NCBI GenBank assembly: GCA_903883985.1
Contig: CAISDD010000160.1
Span: 1 to 35,784 of the forward strand
Source: an uncultured Pseudomonadota bacterium
Lineage (GTDB): Bacteria; Pseudomonadota; Gammaproteobacteria; Burkholderiales; Thiobacillaceae
Reading direction: 5' to 3'
Length of the DNA: 35,784 nucleotides
Positions 6,919 through 31,436 of this stretch are shown piece by piece. The notes beneath the pieces were generated by a model, which was not told the origin of the DNA, made no database searches, and saw nothing but the letters and a program-made list of their open reading frames with translations. The translations under genes were made by a program, and so were the position numbers. Positions within the stretch are counted from its first letter, which is position 1; every line of letters begins with the position of its first letter.

Positions 6919-7079
6919 TTAAGTAATGTCGCGTAACTTGCCTTCATTAAGCTGCCGGCGCAGGCCCTCATCCCCGGCCCTTCCACCGGAGGGGGAAGGG
7001 GGTGGAACCCTCTCCCTTCGGGAGAGGGCGGAGTGAGGGAGCCCGGTGGTAAGCCAAATTGGTTTCGACAAGTTACTTA
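6919..7079 (-). repeat. MITE-like nested-palindrome repeat, copy 1 of 6 (inverted relative to the other five)
   Basis: Near-identical to the copies at 8588, 17648, 29238, 31282 and 34011. Ends TAAGTAATGTCGCGTAAC ... GTTTCGACAAGTTACTTA form terminal inverted repeats. Internal hairpins CCCTCTCCC-ttc-GGGAGAGGG and a CCCTTCC..GGGAAGG stem. Confidence 0.85.
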
Positions 7080-8587: not shown

Positions 8588-8736
8588 TAAGTAAGCTGTC
8601 GAAACCAATTTGGCTTACCACCGGCCTCCCTCACCCTGCCCTCTCCCGAAGGGAGAGGGTTCCACCCCCTTCCCCCTCCGGGGGAAGGGCCGGGGACGAG
8701 GGCCTGCGCCGGCAGCTTAATGAAGGCAAGTTACGA
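8588..8736 (+). repeat. MITE-like repeat, copy 2 of 6 (right terminal repeat truncated)
   Basis: TAAGTAAGCTGTCGAAACCAATTTGGCTTACCACCGG...CCGGCAGCTTAATGAAGGCAAGTTACG. Hairpins at 8639-8659 (CCCTCTCCC gaa GGGAGAGGG) and 8667-8689 (CCCTTCCCC ctccg GGGGAAGGG). Lacks the final CGACATTACTTA. Confidence 0.85.
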
Positions 8737-9542: not shown

Positions 9543-9790
9543 ACCCCACCTCAACACAGATATATTCTTAAATAAAGCATGAACCATGCCACAACGGATG
9601 TATACCTGGAATTGGTGTGAAACACGCCAGGCAGGAACGGCCCTTTGGCCGCAAACGACCGCCGCATCCAGTGCGAGGCGATGGTTTCATCCTCCGAGGT
9701 GGCGCCGGCCACCCAGATCGTTAGAACCGGTAAAAAGTGGGGAGCGCCTTGCGCCTTATTTCCGTCACTCTGGTCGAGTTTTCGACAGAA

Positions 9791-9820: not shown

Positions 9821-10816
9821 TCAGACGGGCTCAGACTTCCTTTTTCGCCGTACCGGGGTGTCGGGCACGCCCTGCTGCAAGGATTTTTTGGCAACAGCGG
9901 GTTTGGCCGCTTGGCGTTTCGGGGGCGGGGCGGGAGTCTTGGCTTCCAGGGGCGGTGGAGTCGCCGCTTCCTTCGCCTTTGCGGAAATCACCCTGGCAGC
10001 CGTCCTGGCTGGCGTACAGTTGGCTGGAGCCGGCGGCTCGATTGGCGTCTGCGCGGGGGGCTTCTGGAGCGTTCCGGTTTTCTTCTTCGCGACGGGTGGC
10101 GCTTCGGCTTTGGCCATCTCGATGCCGAAGACATCGGAAAGCAGCGCGTCGTCGAGCACCCGGCCCTTGGGCAGCACGTTCTTCTTGACGGGCAGCACCG
10201 CCGCCTGCGTCACCAGGTCATGGGCATCCACCTGGCGCAGCGTGAAGAGCAGGTCGGGCTGCGCATCCAGACGCGCGCCCACGCCATACAGCACGGCGGC
10301 GACGTGCTTGCACATCGTCGCCCAATCCGGACAGGAGCACTTGAGTTGAATGGCTTGCGGCGCGGGAAACAAACCCGTCGCAGGCATACAGACGCGCTCC
10401 ATCACGGCCTTTGATAGCCGGCCCTGCAAGAGTTCCACCAGCGAGGCGATGGAGCCGGTGCATTCCTTCACCAACGCCCTCCAGTGCGCATCCGGCACGG
10501 CGGCAATGCCGATTTCGACTGTGTAGAGATCGGATCCCATCACCTGCGCCTTCACCTTGCCCGGCTCAATTTTGAGATCGATGACCGAGCCGTTGCGTAC
10601 GTAGGTGCGTCCGCGCGGCAGGCGGTTCTCGTAGTCGCTGTAGGCCTCCAGATTGTCGCACCACGCGCGGCCCCAGAAGGTCTGGGCGATGGTTCGGCCT
10701 TCGATCACGACCGGGGCCATGCTCTGCCCGGTTTTCGCCGCCTTGGCGACCGTCTTTTCGGCCAGTGCCCGACGTTTGGCGACAGGCACGTAAGGTTTCC
10801 AGTTACCGTAACTCAT
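9821..10816 (-). CDS. SWIM zinc-finger protein with Pro/Ala/Lys-rich basic tail
   Basis: SWIM signature CSCPDWATMCKHVAAVLY (CxC...CxH). Start is 4 nt after the SNF2 stop. The last ~100 aa are low-complexity (KKKTGTLQKPPAQTP...PPPKRQAAKPAVAKK...RRKRKSEPV). Confidence 0.85.
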   Translation of the reverse strand: MSYGNWKPYVPVAKRRALAEKTVAKAAKTGQSMAPVVIEGRTIAQTFWGRAWCDNLEAYSDYENRLPRGRTYVRNGSVIDLKIEPGKVKAQVMGSDLYTVEIGIAAVPDAHWRALVKECTGSIASLVELLQGRLSKAVMERVCMPATGLFPAPQAIQLKCSCPDWATMCKHVAAVLYGVGARLDAQPDLLFTLRQVDAHDLVTQAAVLPVKKNVLPKGRVLDDALLSDVFGIEMAKAEAPPVAKKKTGTLQKPPAQTPIEPPAPANCTPARTAARVISAKAKEAATPPPLEAKTPAPPPKRQAAKPAVAKKSLQQGVPDTPVRRKRKSEPV

Positions 10817-10820
10817 GCGT

Positions 10821-13472
10821 TCATTCCCCGATGGAGTGAATATCGAGCTTGACCAGATCGAGCAATTCCGCGTCGCTCATCTCGGTCAGATTGATTTCCG
10901 CGCCTCCTTCGAGCACGTCCTTCACCAGTTGCTGCTTGGAGCGTATCAGGCCATCGATGCGTTCCTCGATGGTGCCACGGCAGACGAACTTGTGCGCCAG
11001 CACGTTGCGGTGCTGGCCGATGCGCCAGGCGCGGTCAGTCGCCTGGTTTTCCACGGCAGGATTCCACCAGCGGTCGAAGTGAATCACATGGGAAGCCGCG
11101 GTCAGGTTCAGCCCGGTTCCTCCCGCCTTGAGCGAGAGCACGAAGAAGGGCGTCTGCTCGTCCTCCTGGAAACGTTTGACCAGTTCGCGACGTTTGCCCA
11201 CCGGCGTGCCGCCATGCAGCACCAGCCCTTCGCGCCCGAAGAGGTTCCCCAGGAAAGCTGCCAGGGGCGCGGTGGTCTCGCGAAACTGGGTAAAGACCAG
11301 CAGTTTTTCCTGCCGGGCGGCGATGGTTTCCGCGATTTCCGCCAGCCGCGTGAACTTGCCGCTGTCTTGCGGCTTCCAGGCGCCATCGCCTAGCCAGTGC
11401 GAAGGATGGTTGCAAATCTGCTTGAAACGCATCAGGTAGGCCAGAACCAGCCCACGGCGCGCTATGCCCTCCGCCGACTCCAGGGAGGCGGCCAGTTCCT
11501 TGACCGCGCATTGATAGAGCACAGCCTGAGCGGGGTTGAGCGCGCACCAGGCCGTCATTTCCGTCTTGTCCGGCAGATCGTCGATGATGCGTTTGTCGCT
11601 CTTCAATCGGCGCAGGATGTAGGGATTGACGAGCGCGCGCAGCGGGCCGTAATGCGCCAGGTTCTTGGTGTATCCAGCAAACACTTTCTGCGATCCCAAC
11701 AGACCCGGATGGGTGAAATCGAACAGCGACCAGAGATCGGAGAGGCGGTTTTCCACCGGGGTGCCGGTGAGTGCAATGCGTGCGTCGGCCGTGAGCCTCT
11801 TGACCGCCTTCGTCTGCTTGGCCGCCGGGTTCTTGAGGGCCTGCGCCTCGTCGGCCACCACCAGGCGCCAACGCATCTCCATCAGCTTAGGCAGGCGTAT
11901 CAGTGTGCCATAGCTGGTGATGACCAGATCCACGTCCACCAGCCGTTCGACATCCAGCGCGCGCAATTCTTCCTGCGGCATCGCCGACGGGTGCGCGATG
12001 AGGCAGCGCAGGGTTGGGGTAAAGCGTTCGGCTTCCTGTTGCCAGTTGGCCAGCAGCGAGGCGGGGGCTACGAGCAGACTAGGCCGTCCTCGTTCGAGTG
12101 TGAGCAGCAAGGCGAGCACCTGAATCGTCTTGCCCAGGCCCATGTCGTCGGCGAGGCACGCGCCCAGCCCCATCCGGGTGAGCAGGTGCAACCAGCGCAC
12201 CCCCGCCTGCTGGTAGGGACGCAAAGTGGCTTTCAATTCCGGGCCGGGCGTGACGGCGGCCAAGCCCTCGGGGGAGCGCAAACCCCGGAGCAGGTCGGTC
12301 AGCCAGTCCCCGGCGACCACTTCCAGCCAGTCCGGATCGGAGGGGGCTGCGGGCGCGTCCGATGCGCCCGCCAGCAGTCGCATGGCCTGGCCGAAGGGCA
12401 GCCCGTCCGCCGCCGCGTCTTCGATGCCCTGAAAGCGGGCAATGAGATGGGCCAGCCGATCCCGATCCACCTCGACCCACTGACCGCGTATCCATTGCAG
12501 GCCCTCCTTGCTTGCGAGCAGGGCCGCAATTTCCTCGGAGGTCAGTGGTTTGCCGTCCAGCGTGACGTCCATGTGAAAGTCGAGCAGGGCATCCATGCCG
12601 AGCAGCGAGGGGGGCTTCGTGCCGACGCTGGCGGACACCCTGGGGCGAACGGGGCGATCTGCGGCCCAGGTCCGGGGCATGCGCACGACGATGCCGGCCG
12701 CGTCCAGCTTGGGCACATCCTTCAGGAAACGAAGGGCATCGCTCGCCTGCCAGCGCAGGGGGTGGTAAATCTCACCCTCACCGATCATCTCGGCCAGCCA
12801 TACGCAAGTTTCCGCCGCCTTTTGCACCGGCATGAGCAGTGACAGAAGCTGTGCCTTCTTCCTGCCGCCGGAGAACTCCGCCAGGGCTTGGGAGAGCGGC
12901 AGATGCTGGGCCGTGCCTGTGGCCGACAGACCGGACGTGTAGGTGGCGAGGAAGGCAAAGGGGCAGTCCGGGTCCTTGCGATTTTCCGCTAGGTTGAAAT
13001 GCACGCGCCCGACCAGATTCCAGGCCGGATGTTTCGCCTTGAGAAAATCCTGGAGCGACAGCTTCGAGGCCGTCAACTCTGCCTTCACGGCAGATTCGAT
13101 CTCTTTCCAGAGGGCGGCGAGCACCTCCGGTGTCAGGTATTCCGCACCCGCCATTGGCGGCGCATCGAGGCACAGGGTTTCATGGGTCAGCGTATCGGGC
13201 GTGGCCACCGCGATTTCGCCGCTCGAAGGCGTGGCGCTTTGTGTCGCAGTGAGCGCCGTCACGTAAAGCGCCGCAAAGTCGCGCCAGTAAGCCCAGAGGG
13301 CCGGCAGCGCGGTAGTGACTTCCGCTGCACCCAGGTGCAGCAGGCCGTGTCCGGCACCAAGAGCGAAGGCCGCCTCCAGACGCCCGGCGAGCGCATCCGG
13401 AAGCGACAGGGCATCCGGTGCCGCAGCCAAGCGAAGATGCCCCCTGGGTGTGAGATGCGCAGCCCAGGTCAT
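10821..13472 (-). CDS. SNF2-family helicase/ATPase with bacterial SNF2-associated N-terminal domain
   Basis: Motif I DDMGLGKT, motif II DEAQALKN, motif III LTGTPVEN, motif VI QATDRAWRIGQ. The ~400-aa N-terminal region is of the type usually paired with SWIM proteins. GAGGAGG RBS. Confidence 0.9.
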   Translation of the reverse strand: MTWAAHLTPRGHLRLAAAPDALSLPDALAGRLEAAFALGAGHGLLHLGAAEVTTALPALWAYWRDFAALYVTALTATQSATPSSGEIAVATPDTLTHETLCLDAPPMAGAEYLTPEVLAALWKEIESAVKAELTASKLSLQDFLKAKHPAWNLVGRVHFNLAENRKDPDCPFAFLATYTSGLSATGTAQHLPLSQALAEFSGGRKKAQLLSLLMPVQKAAETCVWLAEMIGEGEIYHPLRWQASDALRFLKDVPKLDAAGIVVRMPRTWAADRPVRPRVSASVGTKPPSLLGMDALLDFHMDVTLDGKPLTSEEIAALLASKEGLQWIRGQWVEVDRDRLAHLIARFQGIEDAAADGLPFGQAMRLLAGASDAPAAPSDPDWLEVVAGDWLTDLLRGLRSPEGLAAVTPGPELKATLRPYQQAGVRWLHLLTRMGLGACLADDMGLGKTIQVLALLLTLERGRPSLLVAPASLLANWQQEAERFTPTLRCLIAHPSAMPQEELRALDVERLVDVDLVITSYGTLIRLPKLMEMRWRLVVADEAQALKNPAAKQTKAVKRLTADARIALTGTPVENRLSDLWSLFDFTHPGLLGSQKVFAGYTKNLAHYGPLRALVNPYILRRLKSDKRIIDDLPDKTEMTAWCALNPAQAVLYQCAVKELAASLESAEGIARRGLVLAYLMRFKQICNHPSHWLGDGAWKPQDSGKFTRLAEIAETIAARQEKLLVFTQFRETTAPLAAFLGNLFGREGLVLHGGTPVGKRRELVKRFQEDEQTPFFVLSLKAGGTGLNLTAASHVIHFDRWWNPAVENQATDRAWRIGQHRNVLAHKFVCRGTIEERIDGLIRSKQQLVKDVLEGGAEINLTEMSDAELLDLVKLDIHSIGE

Positions 13473-13487
13473 GAGACCCCTCCTCTG

Positions 13488-16400
13488 TTAAATACGCCGC
13501 GCATCCAGCCATTTCAGCAGGACTGCGAGCAAGCACTCATAATCTACGGGCCTGCCAATAAAGTCATTCATCCCGGCTTCGCGGCAGCGTCGCTCATCCT
13601 CCGCGTACACATTGGCGGTCAAGGCGATGATGACAACGTCTGCGCTGGTGGCTTGCGCCGTGCCGGAGAATTTGCGAATTTGGCGCGTCGCTTCCAGACC
13701 ATCCATGTCGGGCATTTGGATATCCATCAGAATCGCATCATATGGCTTGAGCATCGCCATCTTCACGGCCTCGGAACCGGTCGATGCGACATGGACCACA
13801 AGCCCGGTTTCCTCGATCAGACTCTGGGCGATTTCCTGGTTCAGTAGGTCGTCCTCTGCGACCAGGATCATGGCGCCAGCGTGGCGGGCTTTCAGTTGGG
13901 CGCCTGCGGTATGCGTGCTGTCCACTCGCCCTGGCGGGGTGACAGGGCTGACCTTGCCCAAGCGCGCGGTAAACGAGAAGATACTGCCGAGGCCGATTTG
14001 GCTCTCGACGTCCATTTCGCCGCCCATCAACTTGACCAATCGCTTACTGATCGACAAACCCAGCCCGGTGCCGCCATATTTCCGGGTGCGGCTACCCTCG
14101 GCTTGTTCGAAGGCATTAAATATTCGCTTCTTATCCTCAGCCTCGATGCCAATACCGGTGTCGCAAACCTCGAAGCGTAGCAATATCCCGGAGGACTGAT
14201 CCTCGACCAGTGCCGCACGCAGGATGATCGAGCCCTGTGCCGTGAACTTGACCGCATTGGCTGCCAGATTGAGCAGAACCTGGCCCAGGCGCAGCGGATC
14301 GCCAATCAGCGTCAGCGCCGAGAGGGCGGGCGCGATCTCGACCCTCCATTCAAGTTTCTTACTGGCTGCCTGTTCGTGGGTCAGCGTGGTCACGTTGTCC
14401 ATCACGCTATCCAGGCTGAACTCGACCTGTTCCAGGGTAAGCTTGTTGGCCTCGATCCGGACGATATCGAGGATGTCGCTGATGAGGGCGAGCAGACGTT
14501 GAGATGCCAGGCTAACCTTGTTCAGTTGATCTATCTGTATGGGGTCGGTGGCACGACGCCTGGCCAGTTCGGTCATTCCCATGATGCCATTCAAGGGGGT
14601 CCGTAACTCATGGCTCATGGTGCTGAGGAAGACGCTCTTCGCTCGGGTGGCTGCCTCACTGACTTCCTTGGTGATGGAAAGGTCGGCCATACGCGCTTCG
14701 ACCATGCGCTCCAGATGACCACGGTAAAGTTGGAGCTCCACCTCCCGTTGCTTGCGTTCGGTGATGTCTCGGGCAATGCCCAAAACACCGATCAGGCATC
14801 CTTGCTCGTCGCGCACGGGCGCTTTAGTGACCTCCAGCAAGGCCTGATGGCCGTCTCTGACATAGGTGACCCACTCCTCGCTGACGATTGGGCCCACGGA
14901 CTCCAATGCATGGCGGTCACTCTGGAGGAATCGCTCGGCCAGCTCTATCGGCACGAGTTCATAATCGTTCTTGCCGACGATCTCGGCCGCGTCAGCGCCA
15001 AAATATCGTTCCACTCTGGCGTTAAGTACCAGGTAGAGGCCCTCTGGGTTCTTCATCCATACCATATCCGGCAGATTGTCGAGTAACGTTCGCAATTGGG
15101 CCCGTTGGCATGATAGGAGGGCCTCCTTTTCGCGCAGCTCCTCGATTTCGATCAATACACCCAGTTGCACCGCCGAAGCCAACTCCTCTGACGTCCAGGG
15201 CGGGCATTGCCCACGAATTTCTTGCAGGAACTGCTCAAATGATTTGCGTGGCGACAAGCGTCCGTTGGCATCGGCAATGTGCGCTTCACCAGGGTCGCCG
15301 CCCCAGCGTATCGACAGACACCGCTCCTCGCGAAACCAGATCATGGTATCGGCCGGTCTGGTGGGAACCGAGACGAACAGTGCCCCGGCAATCCCGTCGT
15401 TGGCCTCCTCCAAGCCGAGATCGCGGCTCAGGGCATCCGTGCTGAATAGGGTGGCCACGTCTGCGAGCTCCACTCGACGCGTCTGCAGCTCCCGAATTCG
15501 CTCGATATCCGGAGTTCTACCCGTGGTGTGGATGGCGCCATCGAGCAACAGGGCAAACCCATCTGCAGCGACGACGCCAAGCAGTTCTGCCGTGTCGCCA
15601 CTGCGCAGGAGGTCCTTGAAATCCATTTCCCGTATTGTTTCGATCAGGTTTTTTCGGCGCTTGCTCAAGTCATGCTTGCGCTTGTGCCTCTCCTTGGCCA
15701 GCGTGACTTCGAGCAGGGTGGAGAGGTCTTCAAACAACCACCCAAGTAAATCGCGGTCGGCCGGGCCGAAATACTTCGGCTCGCTCTTCTGCTGACAGGA
15801 CACCAGCCCCCAAAGGCGTCCTGAGACGATGAGGGGCCCCACCAGCGTGGCCCGAACACCCATGTTCCTGAGGTACTCGACATGCAACGGCGAGACGCTG
15901 CGCAGGATCGACGGCCCGAGGTCCAAGGCTCGAATGTCCCCGTGGGCGACCAGTGCCGAGGGGGTATACAGCGCATCGGGAATCTGGCGTACCCGGCTTT
16001 TCAGGAACCACTCGCGAACCTGCCTGGGGATGTCGCTGGCTGGGAAGTGCAGGCCCAGATACGGCTCTACACCATCGATACACGCCTCGGCCATGACCTC
16101 GCCATTCCATGCGTGGTCGAAGCGATACATCATCACCCGGTCGAAACCCGTCAGCTGGCGGATCAACACAACGGCTTGGGTTGCGATGGCCGCAGCGTCG
16201 CTCAATCGCCTCAGGGCGGCTATGGCCCGGCGACATTGGTACTGCACCCCAAGCACGGCGGCGCTTGATTCGGCGTCCTCGATGTCGACCAACACCTGGC
16301 CGGTCGCATTGATATTGGCTCTTGCACTCCACAACCGGCCGTTCAGCGAGCAAGACACCAGCGGTTGCAGGCCCTCACTTTGGCCGGACAGCAGTGCCTC

Positions 16401-16607
16401 TCCCGCAGAGACACCGAGCAGGGTAGCCAGTGGCTGGCCCAGCAGGGTTTCGGCGGCCACGCCAAGCAAGTCGGCGCAGGATACGCTGGCCGCCTCGATC
16501 ACAGCGGTCTCGGCATGGACCACGAGCAGCGCACCGTGGGGGAGTATGGAGCCCGTGAACCGTATCTGCTCCGACTCACAATTGTCTATCTTGTCGATGG
16601 CTGGCAT
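13488..16607 (-). CDS. bphP: Bacteriophytochrome hybrid sensor histidine kinase (PAS-GAF-PHY-PAS-HisKA-HATPase-REC)
   Basis: N-terminal NCESEQIRFTGSILPHGALL (cf. NCEREPIHIPGSIQPHGALL, including the biliverdin-binding Cys). GAF motifs FPASDIPRQVR and SPLHVEYLRNMGV. H-box SHELRTPLNGI. GTGLGLSI. C-terminal receiver ILVAEDD...LMDIQMPDMDG. Confidence 0.9.
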   Translation of the reverse strand: MPAIDKIDNCESEQIRFTGSILPHGALLVVHAETAVIEAASVSCADLLGVAAETLLGQPLATLLGVSAGEALLSGQSEGLQPLVSCSLNGRLWSARANINATGQVLVDIEDAESSAAVLGVQYQCRRAIAALRRLSDAAAIATQAVVLIRQLTGFDRVMMYRFDHAWNGEVMAEACIDGVEPYLGLHFPASDIPRQVREWFLKSRVRQIPDALYTPSALVAHGDIRALDLGPSILRSVSPLHVEYLRNMGVRATLVGPLIVSGRLWGLVSCQQKSEPKYFGPADRDLLGWLFEDLSTLLEVTLAKERHKRKHDLSKRRKNLIETIREMDFKDLLRSGDTAELLGVVAADGFALLLDGAIHTTGRTPDIERIRELQTRRVELADVATLFSTDALSRDLGLEEANDGIAGALFVSVPTRPADTMIWFREERCLSIRWGGDPGEAHIADANGRLSPRKSFEQFLQEIRGQCPPWTSEELASAVQLGVLIEIEELREKEALLSCQRAQLRTLLDNLPDMVWMKNPEGLYLVLNARVERYFGADAAEIVGKNDYELVPIELAERFLQSDRHALESVGPIVSEEWVTYVRDGHQALLEVTKAPVRDEQGCLIGVLGIARDITERKQREVELQLYRGHLERMVEARMADLSITKEVSEAATRAKSVFLSTMSHELRTPLNGIMGMTELARRRATDPIQIDQLNKVSLASQRLLALISDILDIVRIEANKLTLEQVEFSLDSVMDNVTTLTHEQAASKKLEWRVEIAPALSALTLIGDPLRLGQVLLNLAANAVKFTAQGSIILRAALVEDQSSGILLRFEVCDTGIGIEAEDKKRIFNAFEQAEGSRTRKYGGTGLGLSISKRLVKLMGGEMDVESQIGLGSIFSFTARLGKVSPVTPPGRVDSTHTAGAQLKARHAGAMILVAEDDLLNQEIAQSLIEETGLVVHVASTGSEAVKMAMLKPYDAILMDIQMPDMDGLEATRQIRKFSGTAQATSADVVIIALTANVYAEDERRCREAGMNDFIGRPVDYECLLAVLLKWLDARRI

Positions 16608-16613
16608 GTGTTC

Positions 16614-17315
16614 TTAACCGGGTTGCAAGGTCAATTGGTGGTAAACGAAGGCTCGCAGCAGCAAATCCGTCTCGGCGGGAACCTCGAAGAACAGGACACC
16701 ACAGCGATAGCCTGCCTTCTCGTCACCCGAAGACCACGCAATGGACGCGAAGACCGAAATTAGCTGCGTATGCGTCTCCAGGATGATGGGTATGCGAGCG
16801 GTGAGGAGTTCCCCGACTTCGCCCAGCGACACTGCCGAGACGACCATGGCGCCGGTGAGACTGATATCCAGGAGCATAGCCTCGTAGACCGTAGTATCGA
16901 CCCGCGTGACGTCCACGGGCAGCATCACCTGAATACGTGGACTATTCCGAGCTTGCCTGACCACGACCGATTCGGGATAGAGGAAGTGGATGTGCGGGTA
17001 GGGGGTGGTGCTGACGAAAATGGGATGGCAATGGATGGCGAAGGCATGCGTGTTGACCAGACCCCGCAGGATAAACATGTCGGTGGGCTTGATCCACAAG
17101 TCCTCCTGTCCCCTTGGCAGCGTCGTGATCAAGCTCTTGCTCGGCAGCGTCCCGATGTACAGGACTGGAAGATGTGACTTGGCGTTGGCAGGTTGCAAAT
17201 GGACGGGGTGACCCGGCATCAGGTTCAGATCCGCGAAAACCCACACCGAGGAGGGCGCGCCAAAGATTCTGGCTGTGCTTGGTGTGTTTGGTGCGTATTG
17301 AATATCCCCTCCCAT
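16614..17315 (-). CDS. YcgR-like PilZ-domain (c-di-GMP binding) protein
   Basis: PilZ motifs RNSPR (RxxxR) and DISLTGAMV (DxSxxG) in the C-terminal half, with a YcgR/PilZN-like N-terminal half. Stop is 6 nt before the bphP start. Start set at internal ATG 17315 because the ORF-track N-terminus (to 17426) is an Arg-rich, non-protein-like stretch. No clear RBS, so the start is uncertain. Confidence 0.7.
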   Translation of the reverse strand: MGGDIQYAPNTPSTARIFGAPSSVWVFADLNLMPGHPVHLQPANAKSHLPVLYIGTLPSKSLITTLPRGQEDLWIKPTDMFILRGLVNTHAFAIHCHPIFVSTTPYPHIHFLYPESVVVRQARNSPRIQVMLPVDVTRVDTTVYEAMLLDISLTGAMVVSAVSLGEVGELLTARIPIILETHTQLISVFASIAWSSGDEKAGYRCGVLFFEVPAETDLLLRAFVYHQLTLQPG

Positions 17316-17627
17316 ATAAAAATAGCCAGGCCGGCGCCGTTTTACGCGAGCATCCCTCCGTCCCGGGTGCGCCGAAGAGACTCGGCCAACTGAGGGTCGC
17401 GTCGGTTGCCTCCTTCCGATGAGCAAACAAGCTGTGGCGACCCGTCCCGGGCCGAACGCGACGGGAGCACCACAGGATGTCCCGTTCGTGGTGGTGTTTC
17501 AAGCGTACCCCACCCAGAAAGCAAAATACTTTGCCGATATTTGCATATTTGCCAATTCACGACTCGGGGCAAGCCTCTGCGTTGCGCTTCGCGGGACAGC
17601 GAGTATCGGCGCGATTCAACGGTGGCT

Positions 17628-17647: not shown

Positions 17648-17806
17648 TAAGTGATGCTGCGAAACAGATTTGGTTTGCCACCGGGCCCCTCACCCTGCTC
17701 TCTCCCGAAGGGAGTGGGTTCCACCCCCTTCCTCCTCCGGGGGAAGGGCCGGGGATGAGGGCCTGCGCCGGCAGCTTAATGAAGGCAAGTTACGCGACTT
17801 TACTTA
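17648..17806 (+). repeat. MITE-like repeat, copy 3 of 6
   Basis: TAAGTGATGCTGCGAAAC ... GTTACGCGACTTTACTTA with the same internal core. Translating it produces the false N-terminus MVCHRAPHPALSRR... of ORF 17670-20465. Confidence 0.85.
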
Positions 17807-18011: not shown

Positions 18012-20465
18012 ATGTCACGCAAGGCCAAAGCCAACCCGAAAATACCGCCCTCACCCCATGACATGGACAGCGCCGCGTTGGCCGCGCTGGCCGAGGCGGA
18101 ATTGGCGCTGTCTCGCCACAAAGAAGCGATCGATATCTACAAGGAACTGCTCAAGCGTGAGCGACGGCCCCTCTGGGTCGATGGCTTGGCCGCGTGTTAC
18201 GCCGGTCGCGCCCAGAGTCTGGCCGCCAAGGGCATGATCAAGGAAGCGTTGGTGTTGTGGCGTAACCGCCAACATATTTGCGGCAAACCGCTGGTCGAGG
18301 GGCCTTTCCTGACCTGGCTCCTGCAGGCGGGGGAGCAGGACGAGGCGGTGCGACTACTGGCCGATACCTCTCTGCCCGAAGCAGCGCGCGCCGAACTGGA
18401 GACTCGCTTCGCCGCCATACTGCTGGCCTGGCCGCAGGACAAGCCACTCCCCGATCTGCCCGCCGATAGCGCACTGCTGCGCCACCTACCGGCCGCTCTG
18501 GCAGCGTTGGTGGCGTACAGCCAGGGGGATATGGCCGCTCTCGGCGAACACCTCCAGGCGATCCCGTTTCGTTCGCCGTACCGCGATTTGAAACCGCAGC
18601 TCAAGGCACTGGCGCTGCTGACAACGGATCCCACTGCGGCGGCGGCAACCGAGGTGATTGCCCGCCTGCCGACCGACGGCCCCTTCGAGCGGTTAACCGT
18701 GGCATTGCGCTGCGCGGCCTTGCCCGCTGGCCTCTGGCTAAGGGCATTACACGATCTCGACGAGGACAGCCGTCAACTGGTGCTGGACATCAAAGGCTGT
18801 CCAGACCCCCTGCGCCCGCTGCTTCTGGGACTTGCAAAATTAGGCGCCCCCCCCAATCCCGGGCAGTTTTTCGATCTGCTCGCAAGCCACCGACGCGCCC
18901 TGCCAGAGGGTAAAGCGGAGAATTTCTGCCGGCAATTACTGCCCCATGCGGCGAATCGACTGAAGTCCCATGCCGACACCTTCGGCGCCCTGCCCGAAGT
19001 GGAACGATTTCACCTTGCCGCCTTGGCGGCCGAGGCGCGCGGCGAGCACGGCCTGGCCGTGCCCCACTGGAAGCGCATGGCTGAACTGCTGGGAGTCGAT
19101 GCCAACAGGAAGCGGCACGCTGCGCTGATCTGGCGGCGACTGTCGGGGATGGATATCGCGGCCCTGGGGGATGCCGGTGCACTGGACCCGGACGCTATCG
19201 TCTACCTGGAGCGCAGTGTCGATCTCGATCCCGATCAACGCGACACCCAGTTACGGCTGATCGGCGAGCTCCGCCACGCGGGTGCGCTCACTCAGGCGCG
19301 CGCCCGCCTTGACCATGCCTTGCCGCGTTTTCCCAAGGATGCCGAGCTATTGTTCGAAGCCGTACAGGTGGCGCTCACCGGCAAAGCCTTCAAGAAAGCA
19401 GTGGGGCTGGCTAAACAGGTGCTGGAGCTAGACCCCATCAATCCTAGTGTGCGGCGCTTGATCGGCCACGCTCATTTCTCCCACGCCCGCAAGCAGATCA
19501 AGGCGAAAAACCACGCATCGGCGCGCAAGGAGCTGGAAGCGGCGGCGGAATGGCTGCGCGGTTCGGAAGATGGCGCGACGCTGAACTTGCTGCGCGCCCT
19601 CGCCAGTGACGACCGGGTGAGTTCCGGCATCGCGATTCGTAACGCGGCAGCCGACCTGGGTGGTGGCTTGCTGGGTGGCTTCCATCTGGCCCTGGAAGCG
19701 GGCCGGATGGCACTGAATGTGGCCGACCTGCTGGAGCGAGGGAAGGTCAATCTGGCCGCCACGCCCGCCCCCGCGAAGGTGGTCGACCTGATCCGAATGA
19801 TCGAAGCCGTGCGCGATACCGACACCACCTTACACGACAAGACCGTGCGCTTCGCCTTGCATCCTTTTCGCCCGTCACTTAAGCGGGCGGCGAGCGGCCA
19901 ATACGCCGAAGCGGAGCTGCGCCTGATTTGCGAAGCCTGGCTGCGCCTCGAGGAATATGAACTGCTCCGCCTCTATGCCGATGCCGCGCTGAAACATTGG
20001 CCGGGACAACCCCTCTTCGTCTATTTCAAGGCCATGTCTCAATACGCCGACCAGCCGTACAACATGCCCGAGCATATACGATACAACCTCGAACGCGCTG
20101 CCGAGGCAGCCCACGCTCAGGCTGATCGGCGCACGCTCCAGCGCATCCAGGATCTGGTTTATCCGATCGAGCCGGATAGAGGCTTTCCGGAGGATGAGAA
20201 CGACTTCTTCGATATGCCGGGGCATGACGATCCGAGTGAGATGTTCGAGATGCTGCTGCACGTGGGTGGCGAGGAGATGCTGTTCAGCATTGCGCGCCAG
20301 GCGATGGGTAAGAAGTCGTTCGATCTCCTGCGCAAGAATATGGGTGGCAACGACCAAGAGTTCGCTCGCTCCCTGGTCGAATTGATGACGCAACAGGCGC
20401 GACTTGGCGTCGCGCCGGCTCCACGCAAATCCCAGGTTAAACCGAGGAGCCCGTTCGATGACTGA
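18012..20465 (+). CDS. Large (817 aa) all-helical TPR-like repeat protein, first gene of the Hsp70 module
   Basis: Start chosen at ATG 18012 (GGAG 5 nt upstream). Upstream in-frame codons run into the MITE. Leu/Ala-rich helical-repeat composition throughout. The 3' end overlaps the next gene's start by 8 nt. Confidence 0.7.
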   Translation: MSRKAKANPKIPPSPHDMDSAALAALAEAELALSRHKEAIDIYKELLKRERRPLWVDGLAACYAGRAQSLAAKGMIKEALVLWRNRQHICGKPLVEGPFLTWLLQAGEQDEAVRLLADTSLPEAARAELETRFAAILLAWPQDKPLPDLPADSALLRHLPAALAALVAYSQGDMAALGEHLQAIPFRSPYRDLKPQLKALALLTTDPTAAAATEVIARLPTDGPFERLTVALRCAALPAGLWLRALHDLDEDSRQLVLDIKGCPDPLRPLLLGLAKLGAPPNPGQFFDLLASHRRALPEGKAENFCRQLLPHAANRLKSHADTFGALPEVERFHLAALAAEARGEHGLAVPHWKRMAELLGVDANRKRHAALIWRRLSGMDIAALGDAGALDPDAIVYLERSVDLDPDQRDTQLRLIGELRHAGALTQARARLDHALPRFPKDAELLFEAVQVALTGKAFKKAVGLAKQVLELDPINPSVRRLIGHAHFSHARKQIKAKNHASARKELEAAAEWLRGSEDGATLNLLRALASDDRVSSGIAIRNAAADLGGGLLGGFHLALEAGRMALNVADLLERGKVNLAATPAPAKVVDLIRMIEAVRDTDTTLHDKTVRFALHPFRPSLKRAASGQYAEAELRLICEAWLRLEEYELLRLYADAALKHWPGQPLFVYFKAMSQYADQPYNMPEHIRYNLERAAEAAHAQADRRTLQRIQDLVYPIEPDRGFPEDENDFFDMPGHDDPSEMFEMLLHVGGEEMLFSIARQAMGKKSFDLLRKNMGGNDQEFARSLVELMTQQARLGVAPAPRKSQVKPRSPFDD

Positions 20466-20763
20466 TCCTTACCGCCTACTTGGCGTGCCCGCCACGGCCA
20501 ACGACGAAACCATACGCCTTGCCTATCTGGTGGCACTGCGCACTAGCCCGCCCGAGCGCGACCGGCAACGTTTCGAGCAGATACGCGCCGCCTATGAAGC
20601 CATATCCAGCGCCCAGGCGCGCCGATTCCATGCTCTGTTCGACGTCACGGCCCCGACGCCGGAAGACGTGCTGGAGTCGATCAGCGCTACATTCCAGCCG
20701 CGCCGTCCATCGGAGCTGCGGTTGCGCCGGGTGTTGGGCGACAAGTCGGGGAGCAAGGGATGA
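20458..20763 (+). CDS. Small J-domain-like protein lacking the HPD motif
   Basis: DPYRLLGVPATANDETIRLAYLVALRTSPPERDRQRFEQIRAAYEAIS follows the J-domain helix I-III pattern (DYYxxLGV...EIKKAYRKLAxKYHPDxN...FxEIxxAYEVLS), but PPE/SPP sits where HPD should be. 101 aa. The ORF-track start at 20404 would overlap the previous gene by 62 nt, so the ATG at 20458 (MTDPYRLLGV, 8-nt overlap) is preferred. Confidence 0.65.
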   Translation: MTDPYRLLGVPATANDETIRLAYLVALRTSPPERDRQRFEQIRAAYEAISSAQARRFHALFDVTAPTPEDVLESISATFQPRRPSELRLRRVLGDKSGSKG

Positions 20764-21437
20764 GGCTAGACCCCGCCAAAAGGGAAAGGATGCTTGAGGA
20801 ATTCCGCGCCTACTTGGACGAGTCGGTGGAAGACGAGGTAGAGGAAAGCGACACGGAGGCCGGCGACACCCAGGTCGATCTGCACAGCCTGCTAGTCGAA
20901 ATGGCCACGCTAAAGAACGAAATCCGCCTGGAGTCTCGCCAGTTCAAGGCCATGCTCGAGGAAATGCGCCAGTTCGGCGAGGTCCTGCGCGCACAGAACG
21001 AACGCTTGAATCGCGATCTGGAACGGGCACGCGAACAGGCCGCCGTAAGCAAGCGCCAGGCCGAACGCGGCCTGTTGCTCGGCCTGCTCGATCTACGCGA
21101 TCGCTTGGCAGCCGGAGTGGATGCTGGCACAGCGCACCGTCCCGGCATCCTGGCGCGACTGGCCCCGGCCGAGATGCGCTTCGCCGACAGCCTGGCGCAG
21201 GGCCTGGCGCTGACGCTGCGACGGGCGGATGAGTTGTTGGCAGGGCACCAGGTGCGTCCACTGGAAGCCGTCGGCCTGGCCCTAGACCCGAATCGGATGC
21301 GCGCGGTGGGCGTCGACGCAGTGCCTGACAAGCCCGATGGAGAAGTGCTGCGCGAGGTTCTGCGTGGGTATTACCAACACGGCGAGTTGCTGCGCGCCGC
21401 CGAAGTCATCGTCAACAAGAAGGCCAGTCAAACATGA
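20760..21437 (+). CDS. grpE: GrpE-family nucleotide exchange factor
   Basis: N-terminal coiled coil. C-terminal GrpE signature region (LEAVGLALDPNRMRAVGV...EVLRGYYQHGELLRAAEVIVNK). ATGA overlaps at both ends. Confidence 0.85.
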   Translation: MRLDPAKRERMLEEFRAYLDESVEDEVEESDTEAGDTQVDLHSLLVEMATLKNEIRLESRQFKAMLEEMRQFGEVLRAQNERLNRDLERAREQAAVSKRQAERGLLLGLLDLRDRLAAGVDAGTAHRPGILARLAPAEMRFADSLAQGLALTLRRADELLAGHQVRPLEAVGLALDPNRMRAVGVDAVPDKPDGEVLREVLRGYYQHGELLRAAEVIVNKKASQT

Positions 21438-23200
21438 GTGAAATCATCATCGGTATCGATCTGGGTACCACCAACTCCGAAGTTGCCGTGGTGCGTGACG
21501 GGCGTGTGGAAGTCATCGCCATCTCCGAGGGGGTGCGCATTCTGCCCTCGATGGTCGGCCTGGCCGACGACGGCAGCCTGCTGGTCGGCGAAGCCGCCCG
21601 CAATCAATATGTTCTGCGCCCGGAACGCACTGTGCGTTCGATCAAGCGGCGCATGGGCGAAACCAGCCGCATCGCCCTGGGCGACAAGGACTACAGCCCG
21701 CCGGAAATCTCCGCCATGATCCTGCGCCGGTTGAAGCAGATCGCCGAGAATCACTTGGGGCAGACGGTCAACAAGGCGGTCATTACCGTGCCGGCCTATT
21801 TTTCCGACGTGCAGCGCCAGGCGACCCGCGAAGCCGGTGAAATCGCCGGGCTGGAGGTCGTGCGCATCCTCAACGAACCCACCGCCGCCGCGCTGACCTA
21901 TGAAACCGGTCATCAGTGTGCGCGCAAAGCGCTGGTGTACGACCTGGGCGGCGGCACCTTCGACGTATCGCTGGTCAACCTGGAAGGCGATGTAGTGGAA
22001 GTGCTCGCCAGCCACGGTAACAACCATCTGGGCGGTGACGACTTCGACCAGAAAATTGTCGAATTCGCCCTGGACCATCTCCAGACGACCTACGGCGCCG
22101 AGGTCGCTGATGCCGCGCGCTTGTCCGCCGTCGCCCTGGCGCGCCTGCAACGCGCCGCCGAGGCCGCCAAGATCACGCTATCCGACCATCCCTACGCCAT
22201 GCTTGCCGAGGAATACCTGCTGCTGCATCAGGGCGACCCGGTACACCTGGCGGTGGAACTTTCGCGCGGCGACTACGAGGCGATGATAGCCCCCTACATA
22301 GCCGAGACGCTGGATGCCACCCATATCGCCCTCGCCGGGGCACATCTGACCGTGTCAGACATCGACGAAATCCTGCTGGTCGGAGGCGCCACCCGCACGC
22401 CCTTGGTGGCGCGCCGCCTGGAGGAGGCGCTGGGCCTGGTGCCGCGCGGCGAGTTGGATCCCGACCTGTGCGTGGCCATGGGCGCGGCCATCCAGGCGGG
22501 CGTCATCCATGGCGACCAGACCTCCAGGGTGTTGGTCGATGTCACCCCCTACACCTTCGGCACTGCCGCCATCGGCATGCTCGACGGAGAAGAATATCCC
22601 TACTGCTTCATCCCCCTGATCCGCAAGAACACACCGATCCCCGTCACCAAGAGCGAAGTTTTTTACACCGCCCAAGATGGCCAGGAACGGATCGACGTCG
22701 GTGTTTATCAAGGCGAAGATCGCGACGCGCTCAACAACGTCGAAATCGGCCAGTTCACCATAGACGGTCTGCGCCGCGACGCTCCCGCCGGCAGTCGCAT
22801 CGTCACCACCTTCTCGCTCGACCTCGATGGCATACTCCACGTCACCACGCGCGAAAAAGAAACCGGCCTGGAACACTCCATCACCATCGCCAACGCCCTG
22901 GCGCGCCAGGAAACCGACCAGCTCGACGCCGCGCGCGAACGAGTACGCACCCTGTTCGGCGAGGCACCCTCAACACCCGGCAGCGCGGATGGCGACGGCG
23001 CCGACCACCGCCGCCAACGCGTGGAAGCGCTGGCCCTCGTGGAAAAGGCGGAACGCCTGCTAGGAACGGCCGGTGCGGAAGACGGCGAAGACCTGGTGAA
23101 CGGCATCGAAGCCGTCAAGGACGTCCTCGATCAAGGAAAGGAAGGGTTGAAAGTGGCCATGGACAGCCTCGCCGATCTGCTCTACTACCTGGAGGCTTGA
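21434..23200 (+). CDS. Hsp70-family ATPase (non-canonical DnaK paralogue, 588 aa)
   Basis: IGIDLGTTNS, VYDLGGGTFDVSLV and ILLVGGATRTPLV nucleotide-binding motifs. VDVTPYTFG substrate-binding beta domain. Short helical lid with no EEVD-type tail. Confidence 0.93.
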   Translation: MSEIIIGIDLGTTNSEVAVVRDGRVEVIAISEGVRILPSMVGLADDGSLLVGEAARNQYVLRPERTVRSIKRRMGETSRIALGDKDYSPPEISAMILRRLKQIAENHLGQTVNKAVITVPAYFSDVQRQATREAGEIAGLEVVRILNEPTAAALTYETGHQCARKALVYDLGGGTFDVSLVNLEGDVVEVLASHGNNHLGGDDFDQKIVEFALDHLQTTYGAEVADAARLSAVALARLQRAAEAAKITLSDHPYAMLAEEYLLLHQGDPVHLAVELSRGDYEAMIAPYIAETLDATHIALAGAHLTVSDIDEILLVGGATRTPLVARRLEEALGLVPRGELDPDLCVAMGAAIQAGVIHGDQTSRVLVDVTPYTFGTAAIGMLDGEEYPYCFIPLIRKNTPIPVTKSEVFYTAQDGQERIDVGVYQGEDRDALNNVEIGQFTIDGLRRDAPAGSRIVTTFSLDLDGILHVTTREKETGLEHSITIANALARQETDQLDAARERVRTLFGEAPSTPGSADGDGADHRRQRVEALALVEKAERLLGTAGAEDGEDLVNGIEAVKDVLDQGKEGLKVAMDSLADLLYYLEA

Positions 23201-23202
23201 GC

Positions 23203-23463
23203 ATGGAGCGCTGTCCATCTTGCCGCGGCCGCCTGAATGAAAGCGCGCTCTGCCCACGCTGTGGCTGCGACCTCAGCCTGGTGACTTGTGTCGAGTCGCG
23301 GGCCGAAAACCTCGTCCGACTTGCCATCCGGGCCTGGGCCTATGGCCACCCGAAGCTGGCCGTGGCCCACGTCGACAAATCGCTGGCCTTGAAGGGTGGC
23401 TCGCTGGCCGAGACCTTGGCGCCCCTGCTGCGCAAGATCGCACTTGGTTGGACGGCGGAATAA
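23203..23463 (+). CDS. Small zinc-ribbon protein (86 aa), last gene of the Hsp70 module
   Basis: MERCPSCRGRLNESALCPRCGCDL gives CxxC-N10-CxxC, followed by a helical segment. The ATG is 2 nt after the Hsp70 stop. The rest of ORF 22468-23463 is an Arg/Pro-rich off-frame shadow of hsp70. Confidence 0.55.
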   Translation: MERCPSCRGRLNESALCPRCGCDLSLVTCVESRAENLVRLAIRAWAYGHPKLAVAHVDKSLALKGGSLAETLAPLLRKIALGWTAE

Positions 23464-29237: not shown

Positions 29238-29402
29238 TAAGTGAGTCTGCGAGACTGACTTTGTTTACCACCGGGCTCCCTCACCCTGCCCTCTCCCGAA
29301 GGGAAAGGGTTCCACTCCCTTCCCCCTCCGGGGGAAGGGCCGGGGATGAGGGCCAGCGCCGGCAGCTTAATGAAGGAAAAATCAGTTACGCAACATTTCT
29401 TA
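29238..29402 (+). repeat. MITE-like repeat, copy 4 of 6 (most diverged ends)
   Basis: TAAGTGAGTCTGCGAGAC ... GTTACGCAACATTTCTTA with the same CTCACCCTGCCCTCTCCCGAAGGGAAAGGG...CCGGCAGCTTAATGAAGG core. Confidence 0.8.
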
Positions 29403-30753: not shown

Positions 30754-31284
30754 ATGCCCCTGTTGAAAACAGTATCCCCAGAGACCGCAAGCGGAGAGCT
30801 TGCTGCGTTATATGACCAGATGAAAACCGCCTTCGGTGGTGTGCCCAACGCCCTGTCCATCTGGAGCGAGAGTCCACTGCTTCTAAAACAGCAGTTCGAA
30901 TTTATCGGTTATTACATGCAGCATCCCAGGCTGTCCGGAGCCTTGCTGGCGACGATCCGGTTGCTGGTCTCGGTAGACACGCAGTGCATCTACTGCGTCG
31001 AATTCAATGCCGGCATGTTGATCAACATGATGGGTTGGACACCGGAGCAGGTGGCCGCAACCAAGACCGACCCATCCGCCGCCAAGCTCTCCCTGCGAGA
31101 AAAAAACCTGCTGATCTGGGTGCTCAATACAGTAAAGGACGCGAACAAAGTGACTGCGGATGAACTTGACACCTTGCGCGACCAGGACTGGAGCGACCAG
31201 GACATCCTGGAAGCCTTGAATCACGGAGCTCGTATGGTCGCAGGCGACATCATTCTCAACGCATTCAAGGTTACGCGAGACTAA
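30754..31284 (+). CDS. AhpD-like / carboxymuconolactone decarboxylase family protein
   Basis: CMD/AhpD core with the CxxC motif (QCIYCVEFNAG). 176 aa. The stop TAA lies at the MITE copy 5 boundary. Confidence 0.8.
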   Translation: MPLLKTVSPETASGELAALYDQMKTAFGGVPNALSIWSESPLLLKQQFEFIGYYMQHPRLSGALLATIRLLVSVDTQCIYCVEFNAGMLINMMGWTPEQVAATKTDPSAAKLSLREKNLLIWVLNTVKDANKVTADELDTLRDQDWSDQDILEALNHGARMVAGDIILNAFKVTRD

Positions 31285-31436
31285 GTGATGCCGCGAAACA
31301 GATTTGGTTTGCCACCGGGCCCCTCACCCTGCCCTCTCCCGAAGAGGGTTCCACCCCCTTCCCCCTCCGGGGGAAGGGCCGGGGCTGAGGGCCTGCGCCG
31401 GCAGCTTAATGAAGGCAGGTTACGCGACATTACTTA
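31282..31436 (+). repeat. MITE-like repeat, copy 5 of 6
   Basis: TAAGTGATGCCGCGAAAC ... GTTACGCGACATTACTTA. The first internal hairpin carries a small deletion (CCCTCTCCCGAAGAGGG). Source of the false N-terminus of ORF 31304-32245. Confidence 0.85.

Follow-up and report, generated by a model that had tools for sequence, protein, structure and literature searches.

A co-conserved five-gene Hsp70 cassette with a TPR scaffold and an HPD-less J-like protein, and a scaffold tail motif resembling clamp-binding peptides

The window analysed here, the whole 35,784-nucleotide stretch of contig CAISDD010000160.1 (assembly GCA_903883985.1) from an uncultured member of the Thiobacillaceae, carries a cassette of five genes that encode a large tetratricopeptide repeat (TPR) protein, referred to as the scaffold, a small J-like protein, GrpE, an Hsp70 paralogue and a small zinc-ribbon protein (Table 1). 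A first-pass annotation made from the DNA letters had described five co-directional open reading frames (ORFs) with overlapping or nearly abutting ends, and all are present on the forward strand with those overlaps. Profile searches agree with its family assignments (HSP70, GrpE, DnaJ and TPR_19 were all above the Pfam cut-offs). Its central proposal, that the genes form a non-canonical, translationally coupled Hsp70 module distinct from the housekeeping locus, is supported: the five genes are co-conserved, two close relatives carry the cassette beside a DnaK, and the Hsp70 and GrpE fall below equivalog cut-offs. The module has no existing name. The most informative feature of the cassette, and the main new finding, is absent from that annotation: a conserved short motif at the C-terminal end of the scaffold.

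The gene junctions are tight. The scaffold and J-like genes overlap by 8 nt at 20458-20465 (ATGACTGA), the J-like and GrpE genes share an ATGA at 20760-20763, the GrpE and Hsp70 genes share another at 21434-21437, and a gap of 2 nt (23201-23202) separates the Hsp70 and zinc-ribbon genes. Shine-Dalgarno-like sequences (GGAG, GAGGAG, GGGGAG and GGAGG) occur 6-9 nt 5' of the scaffold, J-like, GrpE and zinc-ribbon starts. Before the Hsp70 start there is only a weak AAGAAGG, at a distance of about 12 nt, and translation of this gene probably relies on the ATGA coupling. Identical contigs in public records were annotated independently with the same five genes, the only difference being the scaffold start (ATG at 17940, 841 aa). 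We favour the start at 18012, because M1 and S2 are nearly invariant in the family alignment (conserved at ≥90%).

Table 1. Features of the Hsp70 cassette in the window.
Feature	Positions	Strand	Basis
TPR scaffold, 817 aa	18012-20465	+	ORF; Pfam TPR_19
Scaffold C-terminal tail motif site, reads P-R-S-P-F-D-D	20442-20462	+	Family tail alignment
J-like protein, 101 aa	20458-20763	+	Pfam DnaJ; AlphaFold2; Foldseek
P-P-E (residues 31-33) at the position of His-Pro-Asp (HPD), helix II-III loop	20548-20556	+	Alignment with E. coli DnaJ J domain
GrpE, 225 aa	20760-21437	+	Pfam GrpE
Hsp70 paralogue, 588 aa (nucleotide-binding domain, linker, beta part of the substrate-binding domain (SBD-beta), shortened lid)	21434-23200	+	Pfam HSP70
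8-residue insertion LDGEEYPY, loop L1,2 of SBD-beta	22580-22603	+	Alignments to Geobacillus and E. coli DnaK
Gly/Ser/Asp-rich stretch interrupting the Hsp70 lid at the position of DnaK helix B	22958-23008	+	Pairwise alignment with E. coli DnaK
Hsp70 C-terminus DLLYYLEA, aligned with DnaK lid helix E	23174-23197	+	Family alignment
Zinc-ribbon protein, 86 aa	23203-23463	+	ORF; four conserved Cys

The adjacency of these genes is not random, and the five are strictly co-conserved. A profile of the TPR protein was used to scan one genome per GTDB species (185,579 species), a pattern-limited search that gave 73 matching records, and the partner genes were scored by tblastn with the five window proteins. 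The order TPR, J-like, GrpE, Hsp70, zinc-ribbon on one strand was recovered in every sufficiently long locus among the 73 genome loci, and at loci where tblastn missed the zinc-ribbon gene, an ORF with a CxxC...CxxC pattern still lies directly 3' of the Hsp70 gene. A metagenome scan with a profile built from more distant scaffold members gave 80 further loci; 43 of these continue for 3.3 kb or more past the TPR gene, and 42 of the 43 have the full five-gene set. Overlaps are kept as well: 86% of loci have one between the scaffold and J-like genes (junction median -8 nt), and 82% have one between the GrpE and Hsp70 genes (junction median -4 nt). Thus, the neighbourhood analysis across genome and metagenome loci speaks for co-conservation of the five genes rather than chance adjacency, and the two small proteins are genuine rather than annotation artefacts, given that the J-like and zinc-ribbon genes are conserved across loci.

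Carriers among the Betaproteobacteria include many Accumulibacter (among them the complete genome NC_013194), Gallionella, Sulfuricellaceae, Nitrosomonadales, Rubrivivax, Variovorax paradoxus, Massilia glaciei and Paraburkholderia, with cultured Variovorax, Massilia and Paraburkholderia represented (V. paradoxus ISL-79, M. glaciei B448-2 and Paraburkholderia sp. SIMBA_030). The gammaproteobacterial carriers are Chromatiaceae and Methylococcaceae and the alphaproteobacterial ones are Acetobacteraceae and Roseiarcus; one Nitrospirae metagenome-assembled genome (MAG) also carries the cassette. A profile search of 1.84 billion cluster representatives (50%-identity clusters) placed at least 530 members in the scaffold family at E≤1e-30, nearly all of them about 750-900 aa long. 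Three contigs of a single Acetobacteraceae MAG (T1887 bin 15; loci L049, L054 and L055) each carry a homologue of the scaffold gene, and these could be paralogous cassettes in one genome or reflect a strain mixture in the bin.

The scaffold matches Pfam TPR_19 at 37.3 bits (cut-off 25), and its AlphaFold2 model, built from 113 sequences with a predicted local distance difference test score (pLDDT) of 90.7, is an all-helical solenoid; the description of the 817-aa leader protein as all-helical and TPR-like thus holds. Towards the C-terminus, the solenoid gives way to a disordered acidic linker (residues ~722-737), then a small domain of three helices (741-797) and finally a tail (801-817) that is also disordered. 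Foldseek searches of the PDB returned only generic TPR scaffolds (Ski3, Ctr9, APC/C subunits, IFT-A, TTC7 and Naa15; probability 1.0) with template modelling (TM) scores of at most ~0.25, and a specific structural homologue was not identified among them. Fusions of TPR and J regions were excluded, as the longer scaffold members merely have longer disordered tails.

The scaffold could itself be the client of the cassette, forming an assembly or lattice that is built or taken apart by the Hsp70 with the J-like protein as recruiter, comparable to the clathrin-auxilin-Hsc70 case. It is by far the largest and most cassette-specific of the five proteins. Its gene invariably leads the cassette and runs into the J-like gene, the structures closest to it belong to components of large assemblies, and no other client gene is linked. 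However, there is no sign of self-assembly, the model being a single confident solenoid, and a conserved disordered tethering motif is not normally needed by a client. We consider this possibility improbable.

The scaffold tails are otherwise unalignable, yet close with a conserved short motif. The pattern Qxx[LMF]F was identified in the last 14 residues of 164 of 246 family scaffolds, compared with 3 of 2481 background ORFs. The Gln at position 1 and the Phe at position 5 are fixed by this search pattern, and the informative positions are 3 and 4, which among the 164 matches are Asp in 63% and Leu in 92%, respectively; 31 of the 164 motif-bearing scaffolds fit the stricter form Q[LMF][DSNEG][LMF]F. 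In one branch (the gammaproteobacterial loci L039, L040, L067 and L070 and many metagenomic loci) the tails close with QLDLF, QLELF, QLSLF, QMDLF or QFDLF, placed at the C-terminus or one residue from the end and often preceded by acidic residues. Betaproteobacterial tails have the form Q-[KRPT]-[DGN]-[LF]-F-D-[DE]. A further 26 family members have polybasic tails instead of the motif, and alphaproteobacterial tails end in ...RRSPF, ...QRSLF or basic runs. The residues of the motif are kept despite synonymous changes (CAG and CAA, six Leu codons, TTC and TTT) and across varied junction geometries. This codon variation at Q, L and F indicates selection on the peptide rather than on the start of the overlapping J-like gene or the ribosome-binding site of that gene, and nucleotide-level constraint was rejected as the cause of the conservation.

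The consensus for binding to the beta sliding clamp is QL(S/D)LF, with QLDLF as the strongest binder, a tolerant position 2 and a slight preference for Asp at position 3, and such motifs are typically located in disordered C-terminal tails with negatively charged flanks (PMC11139829). Many tails of the scaffold family match this consensus, as judged by sequence. In the AlphaFold2 model the scaffold tail is disordered and undocked (pLDDT <50). Known clamp binders (Pol II, Pol IV, Pol III alpha, Hda, MutS/L and transposases) resemble many members of the scaffold family in having a pentapeptide with Gln1, Leu/Met4 and Phe5 at the end of a disordered tail. Among the clamp partners described in the review and papers that we surveyed, there is no chaperone component. 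Tethering of the machine to the sliding clamp through the scaffold tail is the likeliest targeting step, to which we give somewhat less than an even chance.

The tail motif may instead serve as an internal handle. It could bind the TPR groove of its own or a neighbouring scaffold, resulting in autoinhibition or head-to-tail oligomers much as EEVD or peroxisomal targeting signal 1 (PTS1) peptides do with other TPR proteins, or it could bind the Hsp70, J-like or zinc-ribbon protein of the cassette, and the client would then be unrelated to DNA. TPR domains classically bind C-terminal peptides, and the betaproteobacterial tails end in F-D-D/E, a terminal acidic carboxylate that is reminiscent of EEVD. 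Some clades lack the motif with the rest of the cassette unchanged, and no replication genes are linked to the cassette. On the other hand, the modelled tail docks nowhere, and the consensus outside the Betaproteobacteria is exactly QLDLF-COOH, the optimal clamp ligand, without a terminal acidic residue. The acidic flanks of many QLDLF-type tails would also be unfavourable for a DnaK-type substrate site and are typical of clamp motifs. We regard an internal handle as rather unlikely.

The Hsp70 matches Pfam HSP70 (PF00012) over its full length at 470.9 bits (cut-off 20.6), and its best sequence matches in the PDB are DnaK proteins (E=4e-117). It scores below the NCBIfam equivalog cut-offs for DnaK (525.5 against 648 for NF001413 and 515.6 against 822.55 for TIGR02350) and for HscA (TIGR01991, 402.5 against 708.55), the last score being lower than those with the DnaK models. 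The protein is 39% identical to E. coli DnaK, is closest to the short Gram-positive form and lacks the 24-residue lobe-IB segment of DnaK. An alignment of family members with E. coli DnaK shows ten residues that are each invariant in 60-61 of the 61 Hsp70s: D8, K70, E171, D194, T199 and D201 of the catalytic site, R167, N170 and T173 of the J-contact surface, and D393 of the hydrophobic linker (VL[VI]D). Loop L1,2 makes up one wall of the peptide cleft, and the insertion in this loop is kept throughout the family. The Gly/Ser/Asp-rich stretch of the lid is probably disordered, judging by its composition. The C-terminus reads D-L-[LI]-[YF]-Y-L-[EQD]-x in all clades and has no disordered tail beyond it. 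We do not rely on the terminal DLLYYLE as an EEVD-like peptide, because it aligns with lid helix E of DnaK and may be the last helix of the bundle. These features suggest that the Hsp70 is active and allosterically coupled, with an altered and probably narrow client range. The GrpE of the cassette matches PF01025 at 71.1 bits (cut-off 25.8; profile positions 9-165 of 165) and is under all 14 matching NCBIfam GrpE equivalog cut-offs (the best being 38.3 against 266).

The J-like protein scores just over the Pfam DnaJ cut-off (30.5 against 27.8 bits). Its AlphaFold2 model (86 sequences, pLDDT 86.8) has the four-helix J fold (residues 4-8, 16-29, 36-48 and 52-61) and two extra C-terminal helices. 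The top Foldseek matches are J domains without exception, among them the DnaK-bound J domain of DnaJ (5NRO_B; target-normalised TM-score 0.78, root-mean-square deviation 2.0 Å). The first-pass annotation had noted the lack of HPD, and residues 30-35 indeed read S-P-P-E-R-D. PP[D/E] replaces HPD in 64 of 64 locus-derived members, and in 86 database homologues P31 and E33 are invariant and P32 is conserved at ≥90%. We class the protein as J-like rather than as a J-domain protein because HPD is absent, and the invariance of PP[D/E] indicates that the loop is under selection for a motif other than HPD. The loop retains an acidic residue that would face R167 of the Hsp70, and Pro invariably takes the place of the His. 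The protein occurs only in stand-alone form, at ~96-107 aa. Residues 87-94 (LRLRRVLG, 20716-20739), in or beside the second extra helix (86-92), form a conserved hydrophobic core with basic flanks; the RLRRVLG stretch resembles a DnaK-binding peptide and could be a pseudo-substrate or autoinhibitory element.

The zinc-ribbon protein has four Cys (C4-x2-C7 ... C17-x2-C20, in the form CPxC...CxRC) that are conserved in all loci and clades, followed by a C-terminal part that appears helical, with a TPR-like sequence pattern. It matches no Pfam or NCBIfam family above threshold (Zn_ribbon_6 was found below threshold, E=0.075). No Pfam or NCBIfam match to DnaJ_CXXCXGXG was identified, and the two CxxC pairs are without GxG. 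A reading of the J-like and zinc-ribbon proteins as a split DnaJ is therefore not supported, the latter protein showing no homology to the DnaJ zinc-finger domain. Its database homologues are 12 small stand-alone hypothetical proteins only; fused or named homologues were not found in this search. We take the protein to be a putative further adaptor subunit.

The cassette is an additional Hsp70 system, since two of the loci, L001 and L003, also encode a canonical DnaK on the cassette contig. These DnaK proteins are 72-73% identical to that of E. coli over ~635 aa (L001, 5104-7005, and L003, 2271-4190, both on the reverse strand), and their genes precede the cassette by 2-6 kb, in the opposite orientation. 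The two loci are the closest named relatives of the window, which itself carries other genes at the position of their dnaK. No DnaJ was identified adjacent to either DnaK at E≤1e-10, and coexistence with canonical chaperones is shown for these two loci and for dnaK alone. The cassette is thus not the only dnaK locus in these close relatives.

The likeness of the Hsp70 to DnaK and of its exchange factor to GrpE is clear, all catalytic residues are present, and the two could in principle constitute a redundant or back-up heat-shock set in which the extra genes are passengers. However, conservation of these supposed passengers is no less strict than that of the Hsp70, HPD is missing from every J partner, and the substrate-binding loop and the lid are altered. 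Both the Hsp70 and GrpE are under the equivalog cut-offs, and no sigma-32 or CIRCE pattern was identified upstream in 67 loci. We find a back-up set hardly credible.

No flanking gene is shared beyond close relatives, as determined by all-against-all clustering of flanking ORFs from 74 and then 137 loci. The commonest flanking family occurs at 8 of the 137 loci, all in Accumulibacter-like genomes, and neither a conserved sixth gene nor a linked client emerged from this clustering. When 131 flanking ORFs from 25 diverse loci were annotated with Pfam, housekeeping genes predominated (ilvD, dxs, DAHP synthase, dnaE, mutS and lgt, among others). The scaffold was not found by tblastn in 72,556 plasmids and 50,697 phages, nor in a scan of a viral-contig collection, and these empty scans speak against mobile-element cargo. 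Given the unshared flanks, the housekeeping neighbours and the lack of copies on mobile elements, we conclude that the cassette is an autonomous chromosomal unit outside any larger operon or defence island. In the 300 nt upstream of 67 loci, sigma-32, sigma-70, CIRCE and LexA patterns were not identified, and there was one sigma-54-like match. No Rfam family matches were obtained, and promoter-like and terminator-like sites, including internal ones, are not above shuffled expectation.

The first-pass annotation had also raised a stress or conflict function, for which we obtained no support. A search of the five window proteins against PADLOC-DB 2.0 gave only a marginal match of GrpE to PbeC (E=0.0098) without a matched stretch, PADLOC found only single matches to Cas3, Cas10 and PDC among the same 131 flanking ORFs, and the upstream regions lack sigma-32 and CIRCE patterns. 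A defence system was rejected on the PADLOC results for the cassette proteins and flanks. An anti-phage or conflict system with the Hsp70 as sensor or thresholding chaperone, comparable to the HSP70/GrpE GTPase systems of Kaur et al. (2020), would be in keeping with the sparse-looking distribution (the 73 records of the pattern-limited scan of 185,579 species), the varied contexts, and the hipA gene and repeats in the window, and conflict systems of an HSP70-GrpE-DnaJ/TPR type have been put forward for Actinobacteria and Firmicutes (PMC7159879). However, the cassette encodes no effector domain (nuclease, protease, pore, or NTPase besides the Hsp70) and has no GTPase or other conserved neighbour, and its flanks are housekeeping in the main. 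With the lack of plasmid, phage and viral-contig copies added to the PADLOC results, we judge a conflict role very improbable.

We predict that the five genes encode one dedicated Hsp70 machine, which we consider very probable. The scaffold and the J-like protein probably form a client-selecting adaptor, a two-subunit equivalent of a TPR-containing J protein that would dock the client on the Hsp70; their gene overlap is the most conserved in the cassette. The J-like domain would dock on the retained R167/N170/T173 surface and control the ATPase of the Hsp70 in a non-canonical way, and the dedicated GrpE would reset the cycle. The scaffold tail may anchor the assembly on DNA-loaded clamps, or on DNA directly in the case of the polybasic tails, and the machine would then remodel or remove proteins bound at the clamp or DNA. 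Taken together, a self-contained cytoplasmic Hsp70 machine that works beside the housekeeping DnaK, possibly tethered to the clamp via the scaffold tail, is the reading we prefer, with a probability of roughly 0.6. A more far-reaching version, in which the cassette represents an unrecognised, replisome-associated chaperone class, is offered tentatively and is somewhat unlikely. In this version the TPR-carried Hsp70/GrpE/J-like machine would be brought to DNA-loaded beta clamps by the QLDLF-type motif, or to DNA by polybasic tails in some lineages, and would spend ATP on stripping or remodelling proteins at clamps or forks, with the PP[D/E] J-like domain controlling the ATPase in a non-canonical manner.

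Several observations weigh against the preferred reading. The link between the scaffold tail and the clamp is deduced from the motif, and in the QKDLFDD of betaproteobacterial scaffolds position 2 is Lys and the Phe is followed by two more residues. Alphaproteobacterial and Methylococcaceae scaffolds lack a clamp-type motif, and thus a clamp tether cannot be the universal mode. The window scaffold itself ends in ...KPRSPFDD, with the Gln and Leu of the motif gone. Its nearest relatives end in ...NQRNLFDD, from which it differs by Q-to-P and L-to-P changes, each consistent with a one-base substitution; its ending is similar to the RSPF endings of alphaproteobacterial scaffolds, and the Q-to-P change contributes to the strong GAGGAG Shine-Dalgarno sequence of the overlapping J-like gene. 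The clamp-type motif is, from the tail alignments, a family feature that appears lost or altered in the window copy. Genes for replication or repair were found beside the cassette only as single occurrences in the 25 loci with annotated flanks. No canonical J domain tested is known to stimulate the ATPase without His33 of HPD, and the J-like protein may therefore regulate the Hsp70 instead of stimulating it. Finally, loci L150, L100 and L094-L098 retain the scaffold, J-like and GrpE genes without an adjacent Hsp70 gene.

Unrelated genes follow in these shortened cassettes. In L150 (701-4247) the three intact genes are followed by an unannotated 172-aa ORF and then by opposite-strand ORFs that, by eye, look like greA and carB, and in L100 (1887-5222) they are followed by a hemE-looking ORF. 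In L094-L098, which form one lineage (e.g., L095, 4080-7574), the same three genes are present, and in L095 the next ORF, of 98 aa, looks like a nucleotidyltransferase. The cassettes may be decaying copies or versions that work with another Hsp70.

Directly upstream of the cassette in the window is one copy (17648-17794) of a ~150-bp repeat resembling a miniature inverted-repeat transposable element (MITE), of which the window has at least five copies at 89-95% identity; the others are at 31282-31436, 6920-7067 (inverted), 8588-8735 and 29238-29376. The repeat reported upstream of the cassette is thus real. A near-identical cassette (99.9% DNA identity) is present on another public contig (L075), on which synteny with the window breaks exactly at the 17648 repeat, probably as a result of an assembly join or recombination at the repeat. 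As the break coincides with the 150-bp repeat, we dropped this difference in context as evidence for mobility. The hipA gene that had been placed 9.6 kb from the cassette is at that distance: it encodes a HipA-like kinase (HipA_C, 68 bits; 7077-8441, reverse strand) and adjoins one of the repeat copies.

Other genes in the window are as follows. On the reverse strand, 9821-13472 encodes an SNF2-family helicase with DUF3670 (883 aa) and then a 331-aa protein without a Pfam family. A bacteriophytochrome-type hybrid histidine kinase (PAS_2-GAF-PHY-PAS-HisKA-HATPase; 13488-16607, reverse strand) and a PilZ-domain protein (16614-17426, reverse strand) are divergent from the cassette, and neither is conserved at other loci. 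A separate, classical 946-aa multi-TPR protein (654-3494, reverse strand; TPR_19, 209.7 bits) occurs with LolA-like, DUF1302 and PEP-CTERM-tagged proteins (3641-4405, reverse strand; 4611-6680, forward strand; 8778-9587, reverse strand). This region looks like a neighbourhood of the exosortase/extracellular polysaccharide type and unrelated to the Hsp70 cassette.

The arrangement appears to be undescribed, as the first-pass annotation had supposed. Relatives of the proteins have generic names in RefSeq and UniProt ('Hsp70 family protein', 'DnaJ domain-containing protein', 'hypothetical protein'), and a full-text literature search identified no account of the five-gene cassette or of a comparable link between a chaperone and the clamp. 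The review of bacterial Hsp70s by Mayer (2021) mentions no TPR protein and refers to operons once, for cbpA-cbpM, and a 2026 review describes bacterial DnaK derivatives as largely unexplored 'dark matter'. Bacterial Hsp70 paralogues besides HscA are largely uncharacterised, and the cassette provides a clean, widespread and compact case for study. It raises the question of how an Hsp70 with an intact J-docking surface works with a J fold in which the catalytic His is always Pro, and of what a giant TPR scaffold and a zinc-ribbon protein add in bacteria, TPR co-chaperones being deemed a eukaryotic speciality. If a chaperone is indeed tethered to the sliding clamp, protein remodelling would join the clamp tool-belt, and this would provide a new handle on the clearance of stalled or leftover clamp-bound complexes.

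Like the housekeeping DnaK-DnaJ-GrpE system, the cassette encodes together an Hsp70 with intact ATPase, linker and J-docking residues, a GrpE and a partner with the J fold. Its Hsp70 is distinguished from DnaK by the low identity noted above, the missing lobe-IB segment, the L1,2 insertion and the broken, tail-less lid. Compared to DnaJ, the J partner is only 101 aa long, has PP[D/E] and lacks the G/F, zinc-finger and C-terminal client-binding domains. The cassette also has two extra obligatory genes and another gene order than the housekeeping locus, and it coexists with a true DnaK. The concept of a second Hsp70 with its own J partner and a narrow task beside DnaK is shared with HscA-HscB (Fe-S assembly) and HscC-DjlC/DjlB. 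HscB, DjlB and DjlC keep HPD, however, and to our knowledge HscA and HscC have no dedicated GrpE. Unlike the cassette, neither of these systems is known to have a TPR scaffold or zinc-ribbon subunit.

In Myxococcus xanthus, MxDnaK2 (SglK) is a non-essential DnaK paralogue in a bicistronic operon with its own GrpE, MXAN_6672 (GrpS), upstream and no neighbouring J protein (PMC11019930). The cassette shares the DnaK paralogue with its own GrpE upstream, and the MxDnaK2 operon lacks the TPR, J-like and zinc-ribbon genes. In the GAP1-N2 conflict systems, HSP70 and GrpE occur beside a DnaJ-domain or TPR protein, but these systems centre on GTPases and FNIII-repeat proteins and are found mainly in Actinobacteria and Firmicutes (Kaur, Burroughs, Iyer & Aravind, 2020, PMC7159879). 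The hosts of the cassette, in contrast, are mostly Proteobacteria, the cassette has no conserved neighbour across 137 loci, and the 25 commonest Pfam families of the 131 flanking ORFs include neither a GTPase nor an FNIII family.

The eukaryotic TPR-J proteins (DNAJC7/TPR2 and DNAJC3/p58IPK), Hop and CHIP combine TPR and J modules with Hsp70 and resemble the cassette by analogy only, as no homology past the generic TPR and J folds was identified. The eukaryotic TPR-J proteins are single chains with shorter TPR arrays and a true HPD, whereas in the cassette the two modules are on translationally coupled polypeptides, and eukaryotic TPR co-chaperones recognise the EEVD tail of Hsp70, which the cassette Hsp70 lacks. 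Mitochondrial Pam16/Tim16 shares the J fold without HPD and is a regulator of the Hsp70 cycle rather than a classical stimulator. However, Pam16 pairs with the HPD-bearing Pam18, and the cassette encodes no J protein that contains HPD; its replacement motif PP[D/E] is itself invariant, and the acidic residue that would face R167 is retained. The cassette, very probably a dedicated Hsp70 system, differs from the known ones in its HPD-less J partner, its obligatory TPR and zinc-ribbon proteins and its modified substrate-binding domain.

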